From Escherichia coli (GTDB lineage: Bacteria > Pseudomonadota > Gammaproteobacteria > Enterobacterales > Enterobacteriaceae): a stretch of DNA of 64,000 bases. The number at the start of each line of letters is the position of its first letter. Position 1 is the stretch's first letter. The translations under genes and the position numbers were made by a program. Of the stretch, positions 1-26,259 are shown one piece after another. Under the pieces are notes generated by a model. The model had not been told where the DNA came from, made no database searches, and worked only from the letters and a program-made list of their open reading frames with translations. The stretch lies in assembly GCF_016026235.1 (NCBI RefSeq), contig NZ_CP065613.1, one strand, 5' to 3'.

Positions 1-2733
1 ATATGCCTGATGATGCGAACGTCCGACGCGACCGCGTAACTGGTGCAGCTGCGCCAGACCGAAGTGATCCGCGCGTTCAATGATAATGGTGTTGGCTGTC
101 GGGATGTCGATCCCGGTTTCGATAATGGTTGTACAAACCAGCACGTTGAAACGTTGATGATGGAAATCATTCATCACCCGTTCCAGTTCGCGCTCGCGCA
201 TCTGCCCGTGACCGATGGCGATCCGCGCTTCTGGCACCAGTTCTGCCAGCCGTTCGGCGGCTTTCTGAATGTTTTCCACATCATTGTAGAGATAATAAAC
301 CTGTCCTCCGCGCAAAATTTCACGCAGGATCGCCTCCCGGACCACCAGGCTGTCATACTCACGGACAAAGGTTTTAACTGCCAGACGACGGGCGGGCGGC
401 GTGGCGATAATCGACAGGTCACGCATTCCGCTCATTGCCATATTCAGCGTACGTGGGATCGGCGTTGCAGTAAGCGTCAGAATATCCACGTTCGCGCGCA
501 TCGCTTTAATACGCTCTTTATGACGCACCCCGAAGCGGTGTTCTTCATCGACAATCAGCAGGCCTAAATCTTTAAACTTGACGTCACTTTGCAGCAGTTT
601 GTGCGTACCGATCAGAATATCGATTTTCCCTTCCGCCACTTCCGCAAGGATTTGCGTCTGCTCTTTGGCGCTGCGGAAACGGGAGATCATTTCGATACGT
701 ACCGGCCAGTTGGCGAAACGGTCGCGGAAGTTGTCGTAATGCTGCTGCGCGAGAAGGGTGGTAGGCACCAACACCGCCACCTGCTTGTGGTTATCTACTG
801 CCAGGAAAGCGGCGCGCATCGCCACTTCTGTTTTACCAAAGCCAACATCGCCGCACACCAGACGATCCATTGCCAGCGGCTGACACATGTCGCTAAGTAC
901 CGCATTAATGGCCTGCGCCTGATCCGGCGTGGTTTCAAACGGGAAGCTGTCGCAGAACAACTGATACTGCTCACGATCGTGTTTAAACGCGAAGCCCTCT
1001 TTGGCGGCGCGTTGCGCGTAGATATCCAGCAATTCCGCCGCCACATCACGCACTTTTTCCGCCGCTTTCTGCCGCGCGCGTGACCACGCATCGCCGCCAA
1101 GTTTATGCAGCGGGGCGTTTTCTTCCGCGCCACCTGCGTAACGGCTAATCAGATGCAGTGACGACACCGGAACATACAGTTTGGCGTCGTTGGCATAGGT
1201 GAGCATCAAATACTCGCCAGTAATGCCGCCCGCTTCGAGCGTGGTCATTCCGGCATAGCGCCCGACACCGTGCTCCAGATGGACCACCGGCTGACCAATA
1301 TGCAGCTCCGCAAGGTTACGGATCAGTGTATCGGGGTTGATGGTGCGGCGAGAATCCTGACGACGGCGGGCAACACGTTCACCGAGCAGATCGCTTTCGC
1401 AGATCAGCGCCAGATTACGCACCTTATCGACAAAACCATGTTCGGCAGCGCCAATCATCAGATAACGCCCACGGTCGCTGGCTTCATCAAGACGCATAAT
1501 GCGTTGCGGAGCAATTTTAATTCGTGCGAGCAGTTCACCCAGCGCTTCACGGCGACCTTCACTTTCTACCGAGAACACCACCGGACCGTCGAAAGTCTCG
1601 AGGAACTTACGCAGCGCATCCAGCGGCGCTTTTTGTTGTGCCTGAACGGCCAGGTCTGGCAGTTTCTGGAAACCTAAATTGGCATTCGCGGCTTTTGTCG
1701 GTAAATGTTCAGTTTTTAGCTGCACCCGGGGCCAGTTTTTCAGCTCTGAGAAGAGCTCGTCCACCCGCAGCCAGAGCGATTGTGGTGGCAACAGCGGGCG
1801 CATCGGATCGACGCCGCGATTCTCAAAACGCGCCAGCGTGTCAGCCTGGAAACGTTCGGCACTGGTTTCCAGATCGCCAGTATTCACGAGCAAGGTATTG
1901 GCAGGGAAATAACTGAACAGCGGCGGCAGTGGTTCGCTGAAGAACAATGGCTGCCAGTACTCGATCCCGGCAGGTAATGTGCCTTTACTCACTTGCTGGT
2001 AAATATGTTCCGGATCGCGCTTCACTTCGAAGGTATCGCGCCACTGGCTGCGGAACAGTTCAATTGCCGCTTTATCGGTCGGAAATTCGTGCGCGGGCAG
2101 CAGATTGATCGCTTCTACTTCCTCCAGCGTGCGCTGGCTGTCGACGTCAAACACCCGCAGGCTGTCGATTTCATCATCAAAGAAATCAAGACGATAAGGC
2201 AGCTCACTCCCCATCGGGAAGAGATCCAGCAACGCGCCGCGCGTGGCGTATTCGCCGTGCTCCATCACCTGGTCAACATGGCGATAACCGGCGCTGTCCA
2301 GTTGGGTTCGTAATGCATCTCGTGACAGGCGCTGACCTTTTTTCATCACCAGCGCATGACCGTGGAGAAAACTGTGTGGGCAAACGCGCTGCATAAGCGT
2401 ATTCACCGGAACAATCAGTACGCCACGCTGCATCGTCGGTAGCTGGTAAAGGGTGGAAAGGCGCGAGGAGATAATGTCCTGATGAGGCGAAAAACTGTCG
2501 TAGGGAAGAGTTTCCCAGTCCGCCAGATTCATCACCATCTGATCGGTGAACTGGCTGATTTCATCATGCAAACGCAGAGCATTTTGCATATCTGGTGCAA
2601 TGAGTACCACCGGACCGGCGTGACGTTCGGCAATTTCCGCTACCAGCGTTGCACAGGCTGCGCCGGTTAACTCGCCCAGCAGACGCTGCTCACCCGCTTT
2701 GACGGGCAGCGTATAACGATATTGTTCAGGCAT
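1..2733 (-). CDS. mfd: transcription-repair coupling factor Mfd (partial, C-terminus beyond window start)
   Basis: Reverse complement from ATG at 2733..2731 reads [16 protein letters not shown], the Mfd N-terminus; minus-strand frame stays open to position 1; plus-strand ORFs here are short antisense fragments. Confidence 0.9.
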
Positions 2734-2860
2734 AACGGTTGTCAGATTCTCGTTAGGATATGCCTCAACATATGGGGGCATATCTCTGATAAGCAATGCT
2801 GTTCATTATCCGTAATCGACATGGTTTAGCAAATTGAATCGCCCCGGCTGGGGCGATGGT

Positions 2861-3934
2861 TTAACGAGAGTAACTGACGGCAGCGGGCAGTGAAGGCGGG
2901 GAGAACAACAGATCGCTGAATGCACGCTGTGAAAGTTTTCTTACCAGCAAGCCCGCAACAGTACAGATGAACAAACTGACAAAGGGATAAACCAGCAGGA
3001 GTGTCAGTTCGACTTGCGGCGACCAGCGTGCTGCGTTCATTTGCGCAAGCAGAGTTAAGCTGAATATTTCAACCAGAATGCGATGGGTGGTGTAGATAGC
3101 AATGGTGTTGGAGCCAATCACATTCAGCAGGCTGGTGGAGCGCATACCGAATCGTTGCTCGTATTGATAAAACAGCTTCATGATCACCACAATCGATACC
3201 AGCGACAACAGCAGCGAGATAGTAAACAACCAGGCACCGACCGCCAGAACGGTAAGCAAAGAAGCCATCAGCAGATGGCGGCGCAACGGCACCTCTTTAA
3301 CACAGGTCATTATTGTTGCGCCAAACCATGCGCCAAGGCTGTAATAAAGCAAATTGCGGATCACACTGTTCATTCCCCACCACGGCGTGGGAACGAAATT
3401 AACCGCCACACTCAGCAGTACAAACAAGGCGAATAGTGGCAGCGCCAGACGGCTAAAAATTTTACATACCACGAAATAGACAATTAACGCATACAGATAC
3501 CACAAGCTGGTGCTGGCGGTGATCATCCCGTGCAGGAACTCACCGGTGGAATCGGCATAAGCGGCATTGGAGGCATTGCTTAAATCGCGCTCAGGTGCCA
3601 GCCACTGGTTCAGCGCACTTAACGCCAGCCACTGCACCACGCCCCAAAGCGCCAGCACCCAGAAGATGTTCCAGATCCGTTTATCGAGACAATTTCCCCA
3701 CGGTACGCTGTCGATATAGCGGCGAATCAAATAGCCGGATATAAAGAAAAAAACCGGCATACGAAAGGGGGCAAGGTAAAGATTGAAATAGATCCAGCAT
3801 TTGCTCAGGACTTCCGATAACGGATGCTGAAAAGTGGTCAGATGCGGATAAAAGGTAATGACCGAGTGATAAATCACCACCAGACAAATACATAACCCTT
3901 TGATCTGGTTAATCCATAGCTCTTTTTGTTTCAT
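2861..3934 (-). CDS. ycfT: inner membrane acyltransferase-family protein YcfT
   Basis: 357-aa hydrophobic ORF, ATG confirmed at 3934..3932; position after mfd matches K-12 order. Confidence 0.85.
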   Translation of the reverse strand: MKQKELWINQIKGLCICLVVIYHSVITFYPHLTTFQHPLSEVLSKCWIYFNLYLAPFRMPVFFFISGYLIRRYIDSVPWGNCLDKRIWNIFWVLALWGVVQWLALSALNQWLAPERDLSNASNAAYADSTGEFLHGMITASTSLWYLYALIVYFVVCKIFSRLALPLFALFVLLSVAVNFVPTPWWGMNSVIRNLLYYSLGAWFGATIMTCVKEVPLRRHLLMASLLTVLAVGAWLFTISLLLSLVSIVVIMKLFYQYEQRFGMRSTSLLNVIGSNTIAIYTTHRILVEIFSLTLLAQMNAARWSPQVELTLLLVYPFVSLFICTVAGLLVRKLSQRAFSDLLFSPPSLPAAVSYSR

Positions 3935-4084
3935 CAGGACAACACGCTCTTTTTTAATTTACATGCGGTTGATCCTGCGGGTTATGACCCGAGGTGTAAT
4001 GGGTATCTGTCTGTATTGGATGATTTTTCAGATTAAGATCAGGCGGCAAGATTGATGATAAAACATGGCAATTTAGCCGATTGA

Positions 4085-7333
<3,249 letters not shown>

Positions 7334-7361
7334 AGGCAGTACATTAAAACAAGGAGCGGCA

Positions 7362-8273
7362 ATGTATTACGGGTTTGATATTGGTGGAACAAAAATTGCG
7401 CTTGGCGTGTTTGATAGCGGTCGGCAGTTGCAGTGGGAAAAGCGGGTGCCGACACCGCGTGACAGCTATGACGCATTTTTAGATGCAGTATGCGAGCTGG
7501 TAGCCGAAGCTGACCAACGTTTTGGCTGTAAAGGTTCTGTTGGCATCGGTATTCCGGGAATGCCGGAAACAGAAGATGGTACGCTGTATGCCGCCAATGT
7601 CCCCGCTGCCAGCGGTAAACCGCTGCGTGCCGACCTGAGCGCACGTCTTGATCGCGATGTACGCCTTGATAACGATGCCAACTGTTTTGCCCTTTCAGAA
7701 GCCTGGGATGATGAATTTACGCAATATCCACTGGTGATGGGGTTAATTCTCGGCACCGGCGTTGGCGGCGGGCTGATTTTCAACGGTAAACCGATTACCG
7801 GTAAAAGCTACATTACCGGCGAGTTTGGCCATATGCGTCTGCCGGTTGATGCGTTAACCATGATGGGGCTGGATTTCCCGTTACGCCGCTGCGGCTGTGG
7901 TCAAATTGGTTGTATCGAAAATTATCTATCAGGTCGGGGCTTTGCGTGGCTCTGGCAACACTATTATCATCAACCGTTGCAGGCTCCCGAAATTATTGCG
8001 CTTTATGATCAAGGCGATGAGCAGGCAAGGGCGCACGTTGAGCGTTATCTGGATTTATTAGCGGTTTGTCTGGGAAATATCCTGACCATCGTTGACTCTG
8101 ACCTGGTCGTCATTGGTGGTGGCTTATCGAATTTCCCGGCAATCACAACGCAACTGGCGGACAGGCTGCCTCGTCATCTCTTACCTGTAGCTCGTGTTCC
8201 GCGCATTGAACGCGCGCGCCACGGTGATGCGGGAGGAATGCGTGGTGCGGCCTTCCTACATCTAACCGATTAA
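7362..8273 (+). CDS. nagK: N-acetyl-D-glucosamine kinase NagK
   Basis: ATG at 7362 ([16 protein letters not shown]), 303 aa, ROK-family motifs. Confidence 0.9.
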
Positions 8274-8288
8274 ACAACAGAGGTTGCT

Positions 8289-9110
8289 ATGCTGTCGCGT
8301 CGGGGTCATCGGTTAAGTCGTTTTCGTAAAAATAAACGCCGCCTGCGCGAGCGTTTGCGTCAGCGTATTTTTTTCAGAGATAAAGTGGTGCCGGAAGCAA
8401 TGGAAAAACCAAGAGTACTCGTACTGACAGGGGCAGGAATTTCTGCGGAATCAGGTATTCGTACCTTTCGCGCCGCAGATGGCCTGTGGGAAGAACATCG
8501 GGTTGAAGATGTGGCAACGCCGGAAGGTTTCGATCGCGATCCTGAACTGGTGCAAGCGTTTTATAACGCCCGTCGTCGACAGCTGCAGCAGCCAGAAATT
8601 CAGCCTAACGCCGCGCATCTTGCGCTGGCTAAACTGCAAGACGCCCTCGGCGATCGCTTTTTGCTGGTAACGCAGAATATAGACAACCTGCATGAACGCG
8701 CAGGTAATACCAATGTCATTCATATGCATGGGGAATTGCTGAAAGTTCGTTGTTCGCAAAGTGGTCAGGTTCTCGACTGGACCGGAGACGTTACGCCAGA
8801 AGATAAATGCCATTGTTGCCAGTTCCCGGCACCCTTGCGCCCGCACGTCGTTTGGTTTGGCGAAATGCCACTCGGCATGGATGAAATTTATATGGCGTTG
8901 TCGATGGCTGATATTTTCATTGCCATTGGTACTTCCGGGCATGTTTATCCGGCGGCTGGGTTTGTTCACGAAGCGAAACTGCATGGCGCGCACACCGTGG
9001 AACTGAATCTCGAACCAAGTCAGGTCGGTAATGAATTTGCCGAGAAATATTACGGCCCGGCAAGCCAGGTGGTGCCTGAGTTTGTTGAAAAGTTGCTGAA
9101 GGGATTATAA
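8289..9110 (+). CDS. cobB: NAD-dependent protein deacylase CobB (sirtuin), long isoform; short isoform start near 8400
   Basis: 273-aa ORF with arginine-rich N-terminus and sirtuin core ([10 protein letters not shown]); internal Met at [13 protein letters not shown] corresponds to the known short isoform; 3' end appears shifted (see findings). Confidence 0.88.
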
Positions 9111-22705: not shown

Positions 22706-23956
22706 ATGGAAAGTAAAGTAGTTGTTCCGGCACAAGGCAAGAAGATCACCCTGCAAAACGGCAAACTCAACGTTCCTGAAAATCCGATTATCCCTTACAT
22801 TGAAGGTGATGGAATCGGTGTAGATGTAACCCCAGCCATGCTGAAAGTGGTCGATGCTGCAGTCGAGAAAGCCTATAAAGGTGAGCGTAAAATCTCCTGG
22901 ATGGAAATTTACACCGGTGAAAAATCCACACAGGTTTATGGTCAGGACGTCTGGTTGCCTGCTGAAACTCTTGATCTGATTCGTGAATATCGCGTTGCTA
23001 TTAAAGGCCCGCTGACCACTCCGGTTGGTGGCGGTATTCGTTCTCTCAACGTTGCCCTGCGCCAGGAACTGGATCTCTACATCTGCCTGCGTCCGGTACG
23101 TTACTATCAGGGCACCCCAAGCCCGGTTAAACACCCTGAACTGACCGATATGGTTATCTTCCGTGAAAACTCGGAAGACATTTATGCAGGTATCGAATGG
23201 AAAGCTGACTCTGCCGACGCTGAGAAAGTGATTAAATTCCTGCGTGAAGAGATGGGCGTGAAGAAAATTCGCTTCCCGGAACATTGTGGTATCGGTATTA
23301 AGCCGTGTTCAGAAGAAGGCACTAAACGTCTGGTTCGTGCAGCGATCGAATACGCAATTGCTAACGATCGTGACTCTGTGACTCTGGTACACAAAGGCAA
23401 TATCATGAAGTTCACCGAAGGCGCGTTTAAAGACTGGGGCTACCAGCTTGCGCGTGAAGAGTTTGGCGGTGAACCGATCGACGGTGGCCCGTGGCTGAAA
23501 GTCAAAAACCCGAACACCGGCAAAGAGATCGTCATTAAAGACGTGATCGCTGATGCGTTCCTGCAACAGATCCTGCTGCGTCCGGCTGAATATGATGTTA
23601 TCGCCTGTATGAACCTGAACGGTGACTACATTTCTGACGCCCTGGCAGCGCAGGTTGGCGGTATCGGTATCGCCCCTGGCGCAAACATCGGTGACGAATG
23701 CGCCCTGTTTGAAGCTACCCACGGTACTGCGCCGAAATATGCCGGTCAGGACAAAGTTAACCCAGGTTCTATTATTCTCTCTGCTGAGATGATGTTACGC
23801 CACATGGGTTGGACCGAAGCCGCAGACCTGATTGTTAAAGGTATGGAAGGCGCAATCAATGCGAAGACCGTAACCTATGACTTCGAACGTCTGATGGAAG
23901 GCGCTAAACTGCTGAAATGTTCAGAGTTTGGTGATGCGATCATCAAAAATATGTAA
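22706..23956 (+). CDS. icd: NADP-dependent isocitrate dehydrogenase
   Basis: 416 aa [41 protein letters not shown]-terminus ends [21 protein letters not shown] (the non-e14 form, see findings). Confidence 0.95.
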
Positions 23957-23977
23957 ACACTACATGTGTTAAATATT

Positions 23978-24008
23978 TAAACGGGCGTATAACACGCCCG
24001 TTGTTTTA
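23978..24008. terminator. rho-independent terminator shared by icd (+) and the iraM remnant (-)
   Basis: Hairpin AAACGGGCGTATAACACGCCCGTT followed by TGTTTTATTT. Confidence 0.75.
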
Positions 24009-24309
24009 TTTATGTGGATATTATTAATAGCATATCGAGCATATTTATATAAAACCCATTACTTGAGCCCATATGGGCATATTTTTATAATACAACTCTT
24101 ATGCAAACATTTATTTGTTATTTCGCTTTCTCCTGGAGGACACTCTTGACTGCTTTTGAGTAAACTCCATAAATTCTTGTTGAATGGTGCAATGTTATAA
24201 ATAGTTATAGGATATTCTTTATCCTTAAGGATAATACCAGGCTTAACCAGTGTAGGTAATGCTGCCAACTTACTGATTTAGTGTATGATGGTGATTTTAA
24301 GGTGCTTGC

Positions 24310-24585
24310 GTGGCTTCCATTTCCATCAGATGTCCTTCCTGCTCCGCTACTGAAGGCGTGGTGCGTAACGGCAAAAGCACTGCCGGACATCAGCGCTATC
24401 TCTGCTCTCATTGCCGTAAAACATGGCAACTACAGTTCACTTACACCGCCTCTCAGCCCGGTACGCACCAGAAAATCATTGATATGGCCATGAATGGCGT
24501 CGGATGTCGCGCCAGTGCACGCATTATGGGCGTTGGCCTCAACACGGTTTTACGTCACTTAAAAAACTCAGGCCGCAGTCGGTAA
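24310..24585 (+). CDS. insA: IS1 InsA (transposition inhibitor / N-terminal part of InsAB' transposase)
   Basis: 91 aa [39 protein letters not shown] (GTG start), zinc-finger motif; about 90 percent identical to the canonical InsA as I recall it. Confidence 0.9.
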
Positions 24586-25007
24586 CCTCGCGCATACAAC
24601 CGGGCAGTGATGTGATTGTCTGCGCTGAAATGGACGAACAGTGGGGCTACGTCGGTGCTAAATCACGTCAGCGCTGGCTGTTTTACGCGTATGACAGGAT
24701 ACGGAGGACGGTTGTGGCGCACGTCTTCGGTGAACGCACTCTGGCCACACTGGAGCGTCTTCTGAGCCTGCTGTCGGCCTTTGAGGTCGTGGTATGGATG
24801 ACGGATGGCTGGCCGCTGTATGAATCACGCCTGAAGGGAAAGCTGCACGTTATCAGCAAGCGTTACACTCAGCGCATTGAGCGACATAATCTGAATCTGA
24901 GACAACATCTGGCAAGGCTGGGACGGAAGTCACTGTCGTTCTCAAAATCGGTGGAGCTGCATGACAAGGTCATCGGGCATTATCTGAACATAAAACACTA
25001 TCAGTAA
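24504..25007 (+). CDS. insB: IS1 InsB (expressed as InsAB' fusion via -1 frameshift at the A6C motif 24561..24567)
   Basis: 167-aa ORF in the -1 frame overlapping insA; slippery TTAAAAAACTC present. Confidence 0.88.
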
Positions 25008-25615
25008 GTTGGAGTCATTACCACCAGTGTAAATATACTTCCAGGAGGAAGAAATATAGTAGATTGATACCAGATAATCATTTTCATATCACCCCATATG
25101 GCTGAAAAAGATATGCCGCATGTAGGTTGAATTACCGTGTCAATTACTACCCACTTCATTTGTTATGTCTTATCCCACGGTATTTAATATAGTTCATTTG
25201 GATGTTCATTTCTTTATTTTGCATATGAGTATATTACCCCTTCAAAAAATAAATTAATTAAAACGATTGCTTATATAAAACAAAATTTAAAGCAAGGAAT
25301 CTCAATGGATGTTAAACAAAATGAGATTTAGTGAAAACAATAAATTATTCACTTCGTTTTAGATTTGTTTAGCTATAATGTTATACATTCAAATGACTGA
25401 CCATCCTGTAATTAAAACATAGCCTTTATGCTACTTTGTGCCAATTTGCTAAACATTATGGTTGCCTTTTTATATAACGATAATAATGAATATAAGCATG
25501 ACATGAGAATAAGGTTTCAATTTTTGAGTTATATAGGAAAGGTTTAACCTGTTCCTGGCTAAAATACATATAACTGGATGATGACTAAACCAAAACACAT
25601 GTGCGTTAAGTATTG

Positions 25616-25645
25616 AAACGGGCGTATGGCACGCCCGTTGTTTTT
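25616..25645. repeat. second copy of the icd-terminator-like hairpin (direct repeat of 23978..24008)
   Basis: AAACGGGCGTATGGCACGCCCGTTGTTTTTAT, preceded by ACACATGTGCGTTAAGTATTG, similar to the sequence following the icd stop; no plus-strand gene upstream to terminate. Confidence 0.6.
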
Positions 25646-25854
25646 ATAAATATATTAAACGTTATGAAATAACGTATAGAAAGTCAAGTGATCACATTTC
25701 AAATATCAATTTGATAGTATTGGCCTGGTGATTATTTATGGGTAGCAATAAAAGGACAGTATTTATCATCCATAGGGATAGTCTCTGTACTTTTATTCCC
25801 ATTATGCTAATGCCTTACTGAATTATGAAGCATTTCTTAAGCATCCAACTTTAG

Positions 25855-26259
25855 CTAGATTAATGGTTTATTATTTTCTACATCTTCAATATATAAAAGC
25901 GTATTATCAATGGCGTAGTAACTGCGTTTGTTATGATTAACATCAGTAACCCAACGGAAAACGCCCGCGTCTGCCAGTGTTGAACAGTATTCCCGAAATG
26001 TAGATTTTCCGCAAATATGAAGCAATGCGGCCTCTTTTATTTTAGCAGGGTTCTTGGTCGTACTAACTTTTAACAGGTTCCTGGTTCCTCTTAATAACAA
26101 AACCGTGTCATCGTGAGTAATAATTCTGATGTTATCCGTAGCCAGATAATAAATGTAATGTGCAATACGGTGATGTTTTAATTCTGAATAAAACCAGGAG
26201 AAGTTTTGCTCTTTTCTCACTTGCTCAAACATCTTTTGAAAAACAACGACCTGATCCAT
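25855..26259 (-). CDS. ycgX: DUF1398-family protein YcgX
   Basis: 134-aa ORF, ATG at 26259; position upstream of bluR as in K-12. Confidence 0.8.
   Translation of the reverse strand: MDQVVVFQKMFEQVRKEQNFSWFYSELKHHRIAHYIYYLATDNIRIITHDDTVLLLRGTRNLLKVSTTKNPAKIKEAALLHICGKSTFREYCSTLADAGVFRWVTDVNHNKRSYYAIDNTLLYIEDVENNKPLI

Follow-up and report, generated by a model that had tools for sequence, protein, structure and literature searches.

In Escherichia coli K-12, the prophage e14 is bounded by attL and attR sites represented by icd and the icdC pseudogene (Hill, Gray and Brody 1989, in the account given by PMC6379469), and the element was reported in 19% of 638 strains (PMC6379469). Another such junction is found at the far end of DLP12, where a 47-bp argU-like repeat is the relic att site of a grounded prophage (PMC6379469). 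The K-12 iraM gene has been placed on the e14 prophage, its relative iraL was described from UPEC strain CFT073, and B2 strains carry this paralogue at another site (PMC4045071).

The locus considered here lies in a window of 64,000 nucleotides of E. coli DNA, in which icd is followed by its terminator, by a short segment carrying iraM, and by a second copy of the terminator in front of ycgX. Judged from comparison with other genomes, the two copies are likely to be attL- and attR-type junctions, now worn, that were left when an ancient element entered the 3' end of icd in the manner of e14 and phage 21. The region is made up of the following features:

22706..23956, plus strand: icd (isocitrate dehydrogenase), intact, 416 aa (ORF and translation)
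23793..24009, plus strand: exchangeable icd 3' cassette, the last ~160 nt of icd with the terminator, carried in attP of icd-targeting phages
23955..24007, plus strand: copy 1, predicted working icd terminator in the attL-type position, with its hairpin at 23980-24002 and a T run; also downstream of the convergent iraM
24010..24058, no strand: left end of the inserted segment, iraM 3' flank; in the alignment with L101, homology to the rare haplotype begins ~10 nt past the T run
24059..24254, minus strand: C-terminal part of iraM, the ORF translation matching residues ~45-107 of K-12 IraM
24255..25022, plus strand: IS1 (ORFs, inverted repeats, target duplication)
25023..25159, minus strand: N-terminal part of iraM, ~44 codons (ORF), containing the second copy of the IS1 target duplication
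25160..25592, no strand: AT-rich upstream (regulatory) region of iraM and right end of the segment, 72% identical to its rare-haplotype counterpart
25593..25644, plus strand: copy 2 in the attR-type position, hairpin at 25617-25639; putative relic of a displaced older icd terminator whose preceding icd coding part would have been deleted
25645..25854, no strand: chromosomal flank from copy 2 to ycgX, with the small ORF ymgL annotated in related genomes; abuts the single terminator in iraM-less strains
25855..26259, minus strand: ycgX (DUF1398), first gene past the scar (ORF, phrog_413 match)

The first-pass annotation had described the ~50 bp after the icd stop codon as recurring at about 25595..25645 in the same orientation and with about 85% identity, and pairwise alignment bore this out. 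Copy 1, which begins at the icd stop codon, and copy 2 gave a 53-column gapped alignment with 84.9% identity (E = 3.6e-9, blastn within the window), both on the plus strand and in direct orientation, with an ungapped core of 43 nt at 88% identity. Copy 2 is distinguished by the diagnostic changes GTGCGTTAAGTATT and a loop ATGG, and the last 15 nt are identical between the two copies. As had also been noted, only AT-rich DNA with iraM and the IS1 lies between them, namely iraM on the minus strand, its upstream region and the insertion sequence, and without IS1 the segment amounts to 808 bp with 29.7% G+C versus 48.8% for the window. The IS1 element (768 bp), with insA and insB ORFs and terminal inverted repeats, is flanked by the 9-bp target duplication ACCAGTGTA at 24246-24254 and 25023-25031 and interrupts iraM after about codon 44; since it splits the gene, a full-length product is impossible, and iraM is inactivated in this strain. 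Neither an integrase nor an excisionase nor arm-type sites were found in the window, including beside the attL-type junction; no third, older terminator or icd fragment was found by blastn to the right of ycgX in the window; and upstream of copy 2 local alignments with icd were no better than shuffles, the sensitive blastn search returning only the 53-nt repeat. Considering that the window holds no integrase, arm sites or icd homology of this kind, the case for an integration scar rests on the comparison with other genomes.

Among complete E. coli genomes, the iraM upstream region was present in 3932 of 5426 (~72%), and the empty form, with icd, one terminator and then the right flank of copy 2, was found in 1129 of 5425 (~21%). 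The survey of icd-downstream content suggested by the first-pass annotation therefore placed the edges of a presence/absence polymorphism exactly at the repeats, as is characteristic of attL and attR: the repeats bracket the insert, and unoccupied sites carry one copy with the same outer flanks. The empty site is exemplified by NU14, EC958 and CU37RT-2, in which icd has only one terminator behind it and the sequence continues directly into the right flank of copy 2; the known strains among the iraM-less ones examined belong to B2. Up to its last 15 nt, this single terminator resembles copy 1 and not copy 2. If the iraM-less strains were simply ancestral, their terminator should resemble copy 2, and hence a deletion or an exchange of the cassette is required: either recombination between the copies, inside the 15 identical nt at their ends, would have deleted the segment, or the site was never occupied and its terminator cassette was exchanged later. 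Other variants are haplotype L097, which has neither copy 2 nor its flank, and strain THO-015, in which a different terminator cassette is joined to the same ycgX-side flank. At the right edge of copy 2, an abrupt rise in divergence, as between foreign and orthologous DNA, was looked for and did not appear; the adjacent flank is itself 4-9% divergent between haplotypes.

The left-hand copy is part of a cassette also present in icd-targeting phages. In phage 21 and related phages, the final ~160 nt of icd are found together with an identical 23-nt hairpin, host homology stopping at 24009, and the phage records matched the query only from ~137/142 to 353, which corresponds to window positions 23793/23798-24009. 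Prophage-bearing genomes split at the same point, ~23793/23798, and between strains icd shows 92-96% identity in its last 165 nt as against 97.2% in the rest, the 5' part, of the gene. In an O157 prophage the integrase comes right after the icd hairpin, and e14-type elements have either this hairpin or an analogous one (K-12 e14, TUM9812), followed by TTATCAAAA arm repeats. The right-hand limit of homology is the end of the terminator, after ...CCCGTTGTTTT, where element DNA begins, and this is the join nucleotide common to five partners: the iraM segment, the ycgX flank, the phage-21 arm, the e14 arm and IS200C. The first-pass annotation was right that e14 is absent from the window and that iraM of K-12 lies just beyond e14, immediately outside its right end. 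Its further statement that the icd 3' end here is native holds in part: comparison with the endings of K-12 icd and icdC showed that it differs from the e14 version, but its C-terminal Icd residues match the copy in phage 21 exactly, and in the proposed model this end would be element-borne, so that the icd-proximal end in the window is not demonstrably native.

Copy 2 might instead be a terminator or insulator that was kept or locally duplicated for its function, for instance stopping minus-strand ycgX/ymgL transcripts or shielding the iraM promoter, with any likeness to an att site being incidental; we regard this as unlikely. Both copies were predicted to be Rho-independent (intrinsic) terminators on the plus strand, with a GC-rich hairpin of a 9-bp stem and a 5-nt loop running directly into a T run, and with folding energies of -17.6 kcal/mol for copy 1 and -15.3 kcal/mol for copy 2. 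The good predicted fold of copy 2 agrees with a function, as do its hairpin, intact in most haplotypes examined, and the single terminator that stands between the convergent icd and ycgX in iraM-less strains. Several observations argue the other way. The window's ORFs confirmed the earlier remark that copy 2 has no plus-strand gene ahead of it to terminate, and on the minus strand, where the hairpin is trailed only by TTTCAATAC, no terminator was predicted at copy 2. In K-12-type strains the copy 2 stem contains a mismatch that goes with a weaker predicted fold of -10.2 kcal/mol, haplotype L097 does without copy 2 and its flank altogether, and a function would leave unexplained the icd fragment that adjoins copy 2 in the rare haplotype described below. 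A retained function and a scar origin of copy 2 are nevertheless compatible and can both be true.

A little less probable still is a small self-contained islet whose att site consisted of the ~50-bp terminator region only, with the crossover in or just after the terminator and with no icd coding sequence ever duplicated. In its favor, the repeat starts at the icd stop codon in the window and in every main-haplotype strain examined, and the single copy of the iraM-less strains, like copy 1 up to the last 15 nt and then continued by the copy 2 flank, is exactly the product to be expected if the crossover lay at the terminator's 3' edge. All known elements at the icd site duplicate the icd 3' end, however, the segment has no associated integrase, and a rare haplotype (L101/L102, identical to E. 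coli N96; 19 genomes) retains more than the terminator. In the N96 type, icd and its terminator are followed by e14-like arm sequence, a 455-aa ORF, a trkG-like gene and a different terminator, and then by iraM', a ymgB-like gene, the upstream region, ~255 nt, the second terminator copy and ycgX. Compared with the window, iraM' is 79% identical at the nucleotide level and the upstream region 72%. The second copy of the N96 type has the TTAAGTATTGA signature in common with copy 2 of the window and is preceded by ...ATCAAGAATATGTTAA, the last icd codons, over 66 nt at 81.8% identity. The preceding 70 nt are collinear with icd, running from the phage crossover region to ...GCAATCAACGC, at ~62% identity and with several gaps; the global alignment score was 12 as against -10.9 +/- 4.1 for shuffles, a value attained twice among 5000 random genomic pieces and never among 5000 shuffles. 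From this collinearity, a 75-nt internal deletion in the N96-type icd fragment would follow.

The flank upstream of copy 2 in the window is homologous, in the alignment with L101, to the sequence that precedes the ~255-nt stretch of the N96 type; copy 2 of the window would accordingly owe its left edge to a later deletion. Such a ~255-nt deletion explains the shorter repeat of the window, which is terminator-only because the icd part would have been taken with it. The unit that an att repeat should comprise at this site, from a crossover ~160 nt before the stop codon to the end of the terminator, thus begins only at the stop codon in the window and is represented by a decayed icd fragment in the N96 type. 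Two candidates were set aside on the same ground: GATGATG before copy 2 is not decayed icd, the flank there being homologous to the right end of the N96-type iraM segment, upstream of the real icd remnant, and CATGTG after the stop codon, considered as a secondary integrase core site setting the left edge of the repeat, was made unnecessary by the deletion. The N96-type haplotype comes from E. coli itself (its bluR is 98% identical) and is not a clean outgroup. No int gene was found in it, only the arm sequence GTTAGCCTGCTAACGGTTATCAAAATTTTATCA beside copy 1, and its trkG-like gene (phrog_1916) is 90% identical to the trkG annotated in K-12; the e14-like arm and the trkG-like gene could belong to a later, separate integration whose right junction has been lost.

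A chance likeness of two generic GC-rich terminator hairpins, which the common motif of hairpin and T run in the best-conserved part might suggest, is extremely improbable, considering that the similarity covers 53 nt including ~25 nt outside the hairpin on its 5' side (E = 3.6e-9), that the window has no further matches, that the copies coincide with indel edges and that the hairpin is rare elsewhere. The pattern AAACGGGCGTNNNNCACGCCCGTTGTTTT occurred exactly twice in the 64 kb and in none of 100 shuffles, even with 3 mismatches allowed. A scan of one genome per species for the 23-nt hairpin pattern returned 16 loci from 100,044 species. Seven of them lie at the icd end in Escherichia, Citrobacter and one contig labelled as a Sporosarcina MAG, on which an E. 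coli-type icd end is present; three are from Mangrovibacter, with no icd inside the flank taken, and the remaining six are scattered over unrelated taxa. A generic hairpin recurring at many unrelated loci, which the first-pass annotation had named as the result that would speak against its proposal, is thus not what the scan returned. Rfam gave only two sub-threshold chance matches.

These comparisons suggest the following course for an integration at icd. An icd-targeting element would have brought its own last ~160 nt of icd together with an icd terminator, recombination inside icd would have joined this copy to the gene, and the chromosome's original icd 3' end and terminator would have been displaced to the far side of the insert. 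Copy 2 would then descend from the displaced original end, the older chromosomal copy, and the icd-proximal end would be element-borne, the duplicated unit being the icd 3' end with its terminator, as for e14. The cargo near the right end of the element may originally have been the ymgB-like gene and iraM. In the main haplotype, to which the window belongs, deletions would have removed all content between copy 1 and the iraM 3' flank, the ymgB-like gene, and the ~255 nt with the decayed icd fragment, producing the present order of a terminator, 0.8 kb with iraM, and a terminator. Copy 1 may now end both the icd transcript and the convergent iraM transcript, and copy 2, although presumably a relic, may continue to halt transcription into or out of the regulatory region of iraM. 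As no integrase is present and copy 2 is truncated, the junctions are not expected to support excision by an integrase. Of the suggestion that att-type scars bound an iraM islet at the icd hotspot, the scars and the hotspot are supported by the indel edges, the phage attP, the phage relatives of IraM and the N96-type icd fragment; the islet itself would be the remnant of a larger element rather than a small element that had integrated as such.

Through IraM, low magnesium, signalled by PhoP/PhoQ, is coupled to the stability of RpoS. Within the 34 IraM clusters, every named member comes from Escherichia, and homologs with 55-70% identity lie between the Q antiterminator gene and the holin gene of lambdoid prophages, once adjoining stx. 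A relative of IraM is encoded in 45 deposited phage genomes, mostly of Stx2 phages, and IraM matched phrog_4407 over its full length. With the NF007393/PF11183 models, K-12 IraM scored 172.6 bits and the N96-type IraM' 143.6 bits, both above the cut-off of 121. Comparison with phage-borne iraM loci detected DNA homology in the coding region only and none in the iraM flanks, and no donor phage was identified. YcgX likewise belongs to a phage-associated family, with a match to phrog_413 and DUF1398 genes in lambdoid prophages. From the sequence relationships, iraM appears to be a captured phage accessory gene, an origin that fits its AT-richness and patchy distribution. In outgroups, phage-type sequence directly follows the icd terminator in the E. 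albertii and Citrobacter representatives and probably also in E. whittamii and Escherichia sp. E1V33, and none of ycgX, bluR or iraM was found within reach of icd in these representatives. Citrobacter freundii has its bluR-bluF module elsewhere, and the YcgX relatives of E. albertii and Escherichia sp. E10V10 occupy unrelated loci or prophages.

These results correct the placement of iraM on e14 in PMC4045071, in that the gene lies outside e14, in what would be an older, separate remnant present in most E. coli with or without e14. The locus also offers a worked example of prophage decay, in which an integration would have shrunk to one gene between two short repeats and rare haplotypes keep the intermediates, and for icd-based typing and population studies it would be advisable to treat the last ~160 nt of the gene and the terminator as a phage-exchanged cassette. 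The advance is incremental, since integration in icd, duplicating the 3' end of the gene, is a mechanism familiar from 1989 onwards and the scar would be a degraded example of it. A broader proposal can be offered tentatively, with chances that fall somewhat short of even: successive phage integrations would be recorded in layers at the icd 3' end, each integration depositing a terminator beside icd and moving the previous one outward (in K-12 icd, e14, icdC with its terminator, iraM, the older terminator and ycgX), the PhoP-controlled RpoS stabiliser IraM would be a domesticated lambdoid-phage accessory gene from the oldest readable layer, and in every E. coli the icd terminator cassette would undergo continual exchange with the pool of phages. 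If true, with the family still residing beside stx in Stx2 phages, temperate phages may commonly tune the general stress response of their hosts.

Among the known systems, phage 21 offers one comparison. Its attP, comprising 165 nt of icd-like sequence, the terminator, the P1-P3 arm sites and int, has the same hairpin, right edge and C-terminal Icd residues as the window; the TTCCCCAAAA arm sites and int of the phage are absent from the window, where the iraM 3' flank takes their place. The phage iraM-like genes (phages 2851 and 1717, Stx2c) and iraL belong to the same family as iraM (PF11183, NF007393, phrog_4407), and the phage genes resemble it in being small, on the strand opposite to the late genes and in AT-rich DNA. 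They differ in being located not at icd but elsewhere in the genome, in intact or decaying prophages, with Q on one side and the lysis genes on the other, and in sharing 55-70% protein identity with it. A relic of the DLP12 type resembles the scar in that a short, partial 3' end of the target bounds decayed phage DNA, although the target of the scar is the end of a protein-coding gene with its terminator rather than a tRNA gene, and its decay has gone much further. With e14, the scar shares an insert in the 3' end of icd, direct repeats, a presumably element-borne end at icd, a displaced original and the same hotspot. Unlike e14, it has no integrase, excisionase or phage structural genes, carries 0.8 kb of cargo and, in the window, has a displaced copy without icd coding sequence; its repeats are 85% identical versus 92-95% for those of e14, the e14 terminator is a different, analogous hairpin, and the scar occurs in ~72% of genomes as against the 19% of strains reported for e14. 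The 0.8-kb islet would be an older layer beneath the e14 site, and in K-12 the two layers stand side by side in the order icd, e14, icdC with its terminator, iraM, terminator and ycgX.

The icd terminator occurs twice in this stretch, once directly after icd (copy 1) and again in the same orientation beyond iraM (copy 2), with the AT-rich iraM segment in between. The features, in window coordinates, are arranged as follows.

22706-23956, + strand: icd, intact
23955-24007, + strand: copy 1
23980-24002: icd terminator, a strong hairpin plus T run, 3' of the icd stop codon
24059-25159, - strand: iraM, interrupted by IS1 after about codon 44
24246-24254 and 25023-25031: 9-bp IS1 target duplication, ACCAGTGTA
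24255-25022: IS1, 768 bp, inside iraM
Between iraM and copy 2: AT-rich iraM upstream DNA, about 430 bp
25593-25644, + strand: copy 2, with its hairpin at 25617-25639
Between copy 2 and ycgX: flank of 210 bp
25855-26259, - strand: ycgX
Beyond ycgX: bluR and bluF

Since iraM is split by IS1, functional IraM is not made by the window strain; apart from IS1, the icd-iraM-ycgX stretch is 100% identical to the sequence of FDAARGOS_943, in which iraM is uninterrupted. The G+C content of the 808-bp iraM segment (IS1 excluded) is 29.7%, versus 48.8% for the window.

The first-pass annotation had proposed that the repeats are att-type scars and that iraM sits on a small ancient islet at the icd hotspot. 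Pairwise alignment confirmed the repeat itself, with 84.9% identity over 53 columns (E = 3.6e-9 within the window) and an ungapped core of 88% identity over 43 nt. With at most three mismatches allowed, the hairpin-plus-tail pattern was found at only two sites in the 64 kb and in 0 of 100 shuffles. Among 100,044 species, each represented by one genome, the 23-nt hairpin pattern occurred at 16 loci: seven icd ends (Escherichia, Citrobacter and one contig labelled Sporosarcina MAG, whose icd end is of the E. coli type), three loci in Mangrovibacter with icd not found within reach, and six in unrelated taxa. This rarity, with seven loci at the icd end, argues firmly that the repeat is not a generic terminator, and the objection that it might be one fails.

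The hairpin itself varies between copies and strains. The native icd terminator, whose loop is ATAA, is kept from Citrobacter to Escherichia. In the K-12-type copy 2 (locus L003, 2547-2569), both members of one stem pair are changed (G to A and C to G), non-compensatorily and leaving an A/G mismatch, and one pair is gained at the stem top through a change adjoining the loop; the predicted fold is -10.2 kcal/mol, versus -15.3 kcal/mol for copy 2 without those changes. The hairpin top of copy 1 is inverted in strains 20AH011 (L042 685-707) and KKa019 (L091 1089-1111), CGTGTTATACG replacing CGTATAACACG; the loop region there appears as its reverse complement, which is what template switching inside the hairpin would give.

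In phage 21 and about 30 related deposited phage genomes, the final ~160 nt of icd lead into the identical hairpin, and similarity of these phages to the chromosome starts at 23793 or 23798 and ends at 24009 of the window. The terminator of phage 21 is followed by arm-type sites and int, and this layout (icd end, hairpin, int) is seen in place in an O157 prophage; e14-type elements have an analogous hairpin, or in some cases the window hairpin, and then TTATCAAAA repeats. Across all terminators in the fetched loci, one junction nucleotide, after ...CCCGTTGTTTT, serves five partners, namely the iraM segment, the ycgX-side flank, the phage-21 arm, e14-like arms and IS200C. The left edge of the iraM segment thus coincides exactly with the start of element DNA in known lysogens.

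In several strains (FCI1, L041 716 and 2289; 20AH011, L042; KKa019, L091), IS200C sits at one and the same position, immediately downstream of ...CCCGTTGTTTTT, at each of the two terminator copies, equivalent to window 24007 and 25644; some iraM-less strains have it at their single terminator as well. These insertions point to the icd hairpin plus T run as a strongly preferred target, and paired IS200C copies constitute a second direct-repeat pair that could delete iraM.

The icd-iraM-ycgX sequence with IS1 taken out (1867 nt) served as the query for a survey of 5426 complete E. coli genomes. Matches were found in 5425, a single match covering at least 80% of the segment in 3841, and the iraM upstream region in 3932. 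In strains such as NU14, EC958, 83972 and CU37RT-2, which are B2 strains, iraM is absent and one terminator, after icd or icdC (the displaced icd end), is joined to the right flank of copy 2; this single-terminator form is present in 1129 complete genomes. The terminator repeats are therefore the edges of a presence/absence polymorphism, and the direct joining of a single terminator to the copy 2 flank indicates that the inserted or deleted unit is the 808-bp iraM segment plus one terminator copy. The empty-form terminator is copy-1-like (loop ATAA, GTGTTAAAT) up to its last 15 nt, which are common to both copies, and then continues into the copy 2 flank. The balance leans towards loss of the segment from iraM-less strains by recombination within these 15 nt. 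That the displaced copy is old is shown by the copy 2 signature common to the main haplotype (the form in the window) and the rare N96-type haplotype, and by how far the iraM segment has diverged (by as much as ~10% among main-haplotype genomes and by 21-28% between haplotypes), although both haplotypes come from E. coli itself (bluR is 98% identical). Alternatively, the iraM-less strains may represent a never-occupied site at which the cassette was exchanged. In O157:H7 Xuzhou21, the DNA after the icd terminator is a lambdoid prophage (L004 6300-12353) whose integrase is of the phage-21 type; iraM and ycgX were not found in this genome, the icd end being the sole match to the 1867-nt query, and the right junction of the prophage seems to have been deleted.

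Cassette exchange also bears on the icd 3' end, which had been called native. The K-12 protein ending given in the first-pass annotation was correct, and comparison of K-12 icd, K-12 icdC and window icd bore out that the window ending differs from that of K-12; the icd-proximal copy cannot be shown to be native. Identity between strains is 92-96% in the last 165 nt of icd versus 97.2% elsewhere in the gene. Over its 5' 1085 nt (22706-23790), window icd shares just 97.2% identity with K-12, with a B2 strain and with EC-10, which makes it an unusually divergent allele for an E. coli housekeeping gene. The iraM-less THO-015 (L043 2660-2720) carries a Citrobacter-like or phage-like terminator cassette (TTAAAAACGGTAACGGGCG...) on an ordinary ycgX-side flank, which is direct evidence that cassette and flank are exchanged independently. 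The icd-end variability and this cassette fit repeated exchange with phages.

The N96-type contigs L101 and L102, together with L097, were reached via YcgX relatives. Over 6.4 kb, L101 and the complete E. coli N96 genome are identical, and this form occurs in 19 of the 5426 genomes. Its content between icd and ycgX (L104, E. coli N96, 2530-9090; also L097, L101 and L102) is as follows.

Left part: icd, terminator, e14-like arm sequence, 455-aa ORF, transposase fragment, trkG-like gene, different terminator
Right part: iraM', ymgB-like gene, homologue of the iraM upstream region, ~255 nt, second icd terminator copy; then ycgX, bluR and bluF

At the nucleotide level iraM' and iraM are 79% identical, the iraM' product belongs to NF007393, and the upstream homologue is 72% identical. 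The ymgB/ariR-like gene apparently forms an operon with the divergent iraM; the 455-aa ORF is without assigned function. The trkG-like gene gives a full-length match to phrog_1916 and shares 90% identity with the gene annotated as trkG in K-12 genomes, a gene of the Rac prophage; the trkG-like gene and the e14-like arm could derive from a later, separate integration.

The second terminator of this haplotype shares the diagnostic TTAAGTATTGA with window copy 2 and is preceded by the last icd codons ...ATCAAGAATATGTTAA, 66 nt aligning at 81.8% with window 23942-24007. Farther upstream, 70 nt are collinear with the part of icd that stretches from the phage crossover region as far as ...GCAATCAACGC, with a global score of 12 versus -10.9 +/- 4.1 for shuffled sequences; a score of 12 was reached by 0 of 5000 shuffles and by 2 of 5000 random genomic pieces, taken from a pool that included icd itself. 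Taken together, these stretches represent a decayed 3' fragment of icd, internally shortened by 75 nt, at the expected attR position. Because the upstream flank of window copy 2 is homologous to the L101 sequence preceding the ~255-nt stretch, the left edge of copy 2 is probably secondary, the icd remnant having been deleted from the main haplotype. Also missing from the main haplotype, relative to L101, are the ymgB-like gene and all DNA separating copy 1 from the 3' flank of iraM, and in the L097 variant copy 2 and its adjoining flank are missing.

The IraM family (PF11183, NF007393) comprises 34 clusters, all named ones from Escherichia, and IraM matches phrog_4407 end to end. Relatives with 55-70% identity lie in lambdoid prophages between the Q antiterminator and holin, on the opposite strand; one of 70% identity stands directly beside the Shiga toxin A/B genes, before the downstream late gene (L009-L011, GCA_039832115.1 and relatives), and one is on a virulence plasmid. 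Among deposited phage genomes, 45, most of them from Stx2 phages, encode a full-length relative of ~65% identity, and some of these records already carry an iraM annotation. YcgX (DUF1398, phrog_413) belongs to a phage-associated family, and lambdoid prophages carry a ycgX-type gene downstream of their lysis genes, with the order and orientation relative to the iraM-like gene that the chromosome shows. DNA similarity to phage-borne loci was not found beyond the iraM coding region, and no donor phage was found. The iraM cargo appears, from its relatives, to be of phage type.

These results suggest a history in which an element of the e14/phage-21 kind would have entered icd in an ancestor of today's E. 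coli (or related elements would have done so more than once), supplying its own icd end and terminator and carrying the ymgB-like gene and iraM as cargo near its right end. The original icd end and terminator would have been displaced outward, copy 2 being the survivor, and subsequent deletions would have led to the reduced form seen in the window. The proposal of att-type scars around an iraM islet is thus supported with refinements: the islet would be what deletions left of a larger element, whose repeat once included the icd end, and the icd end next to it cannot be shown to be native. The significance is moderate, since the result would settle where a well-studied regulator gene came from and where it lies.

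The two copies are accordingly supported, on sequence comparison, as strongly decayed relic junctions of an icd-integrating phage, a kind already known. K-12 would then comprise two layers, in the order icd, e14, icdC plus terminator, iraM, older terminator and ycgX. A published account (PMC4045071) says of iraM in K-12 that it 'is found on the e14 prophage'; this placement is imprecise, because the K-12 order puts iraM in the older layer outside e14.
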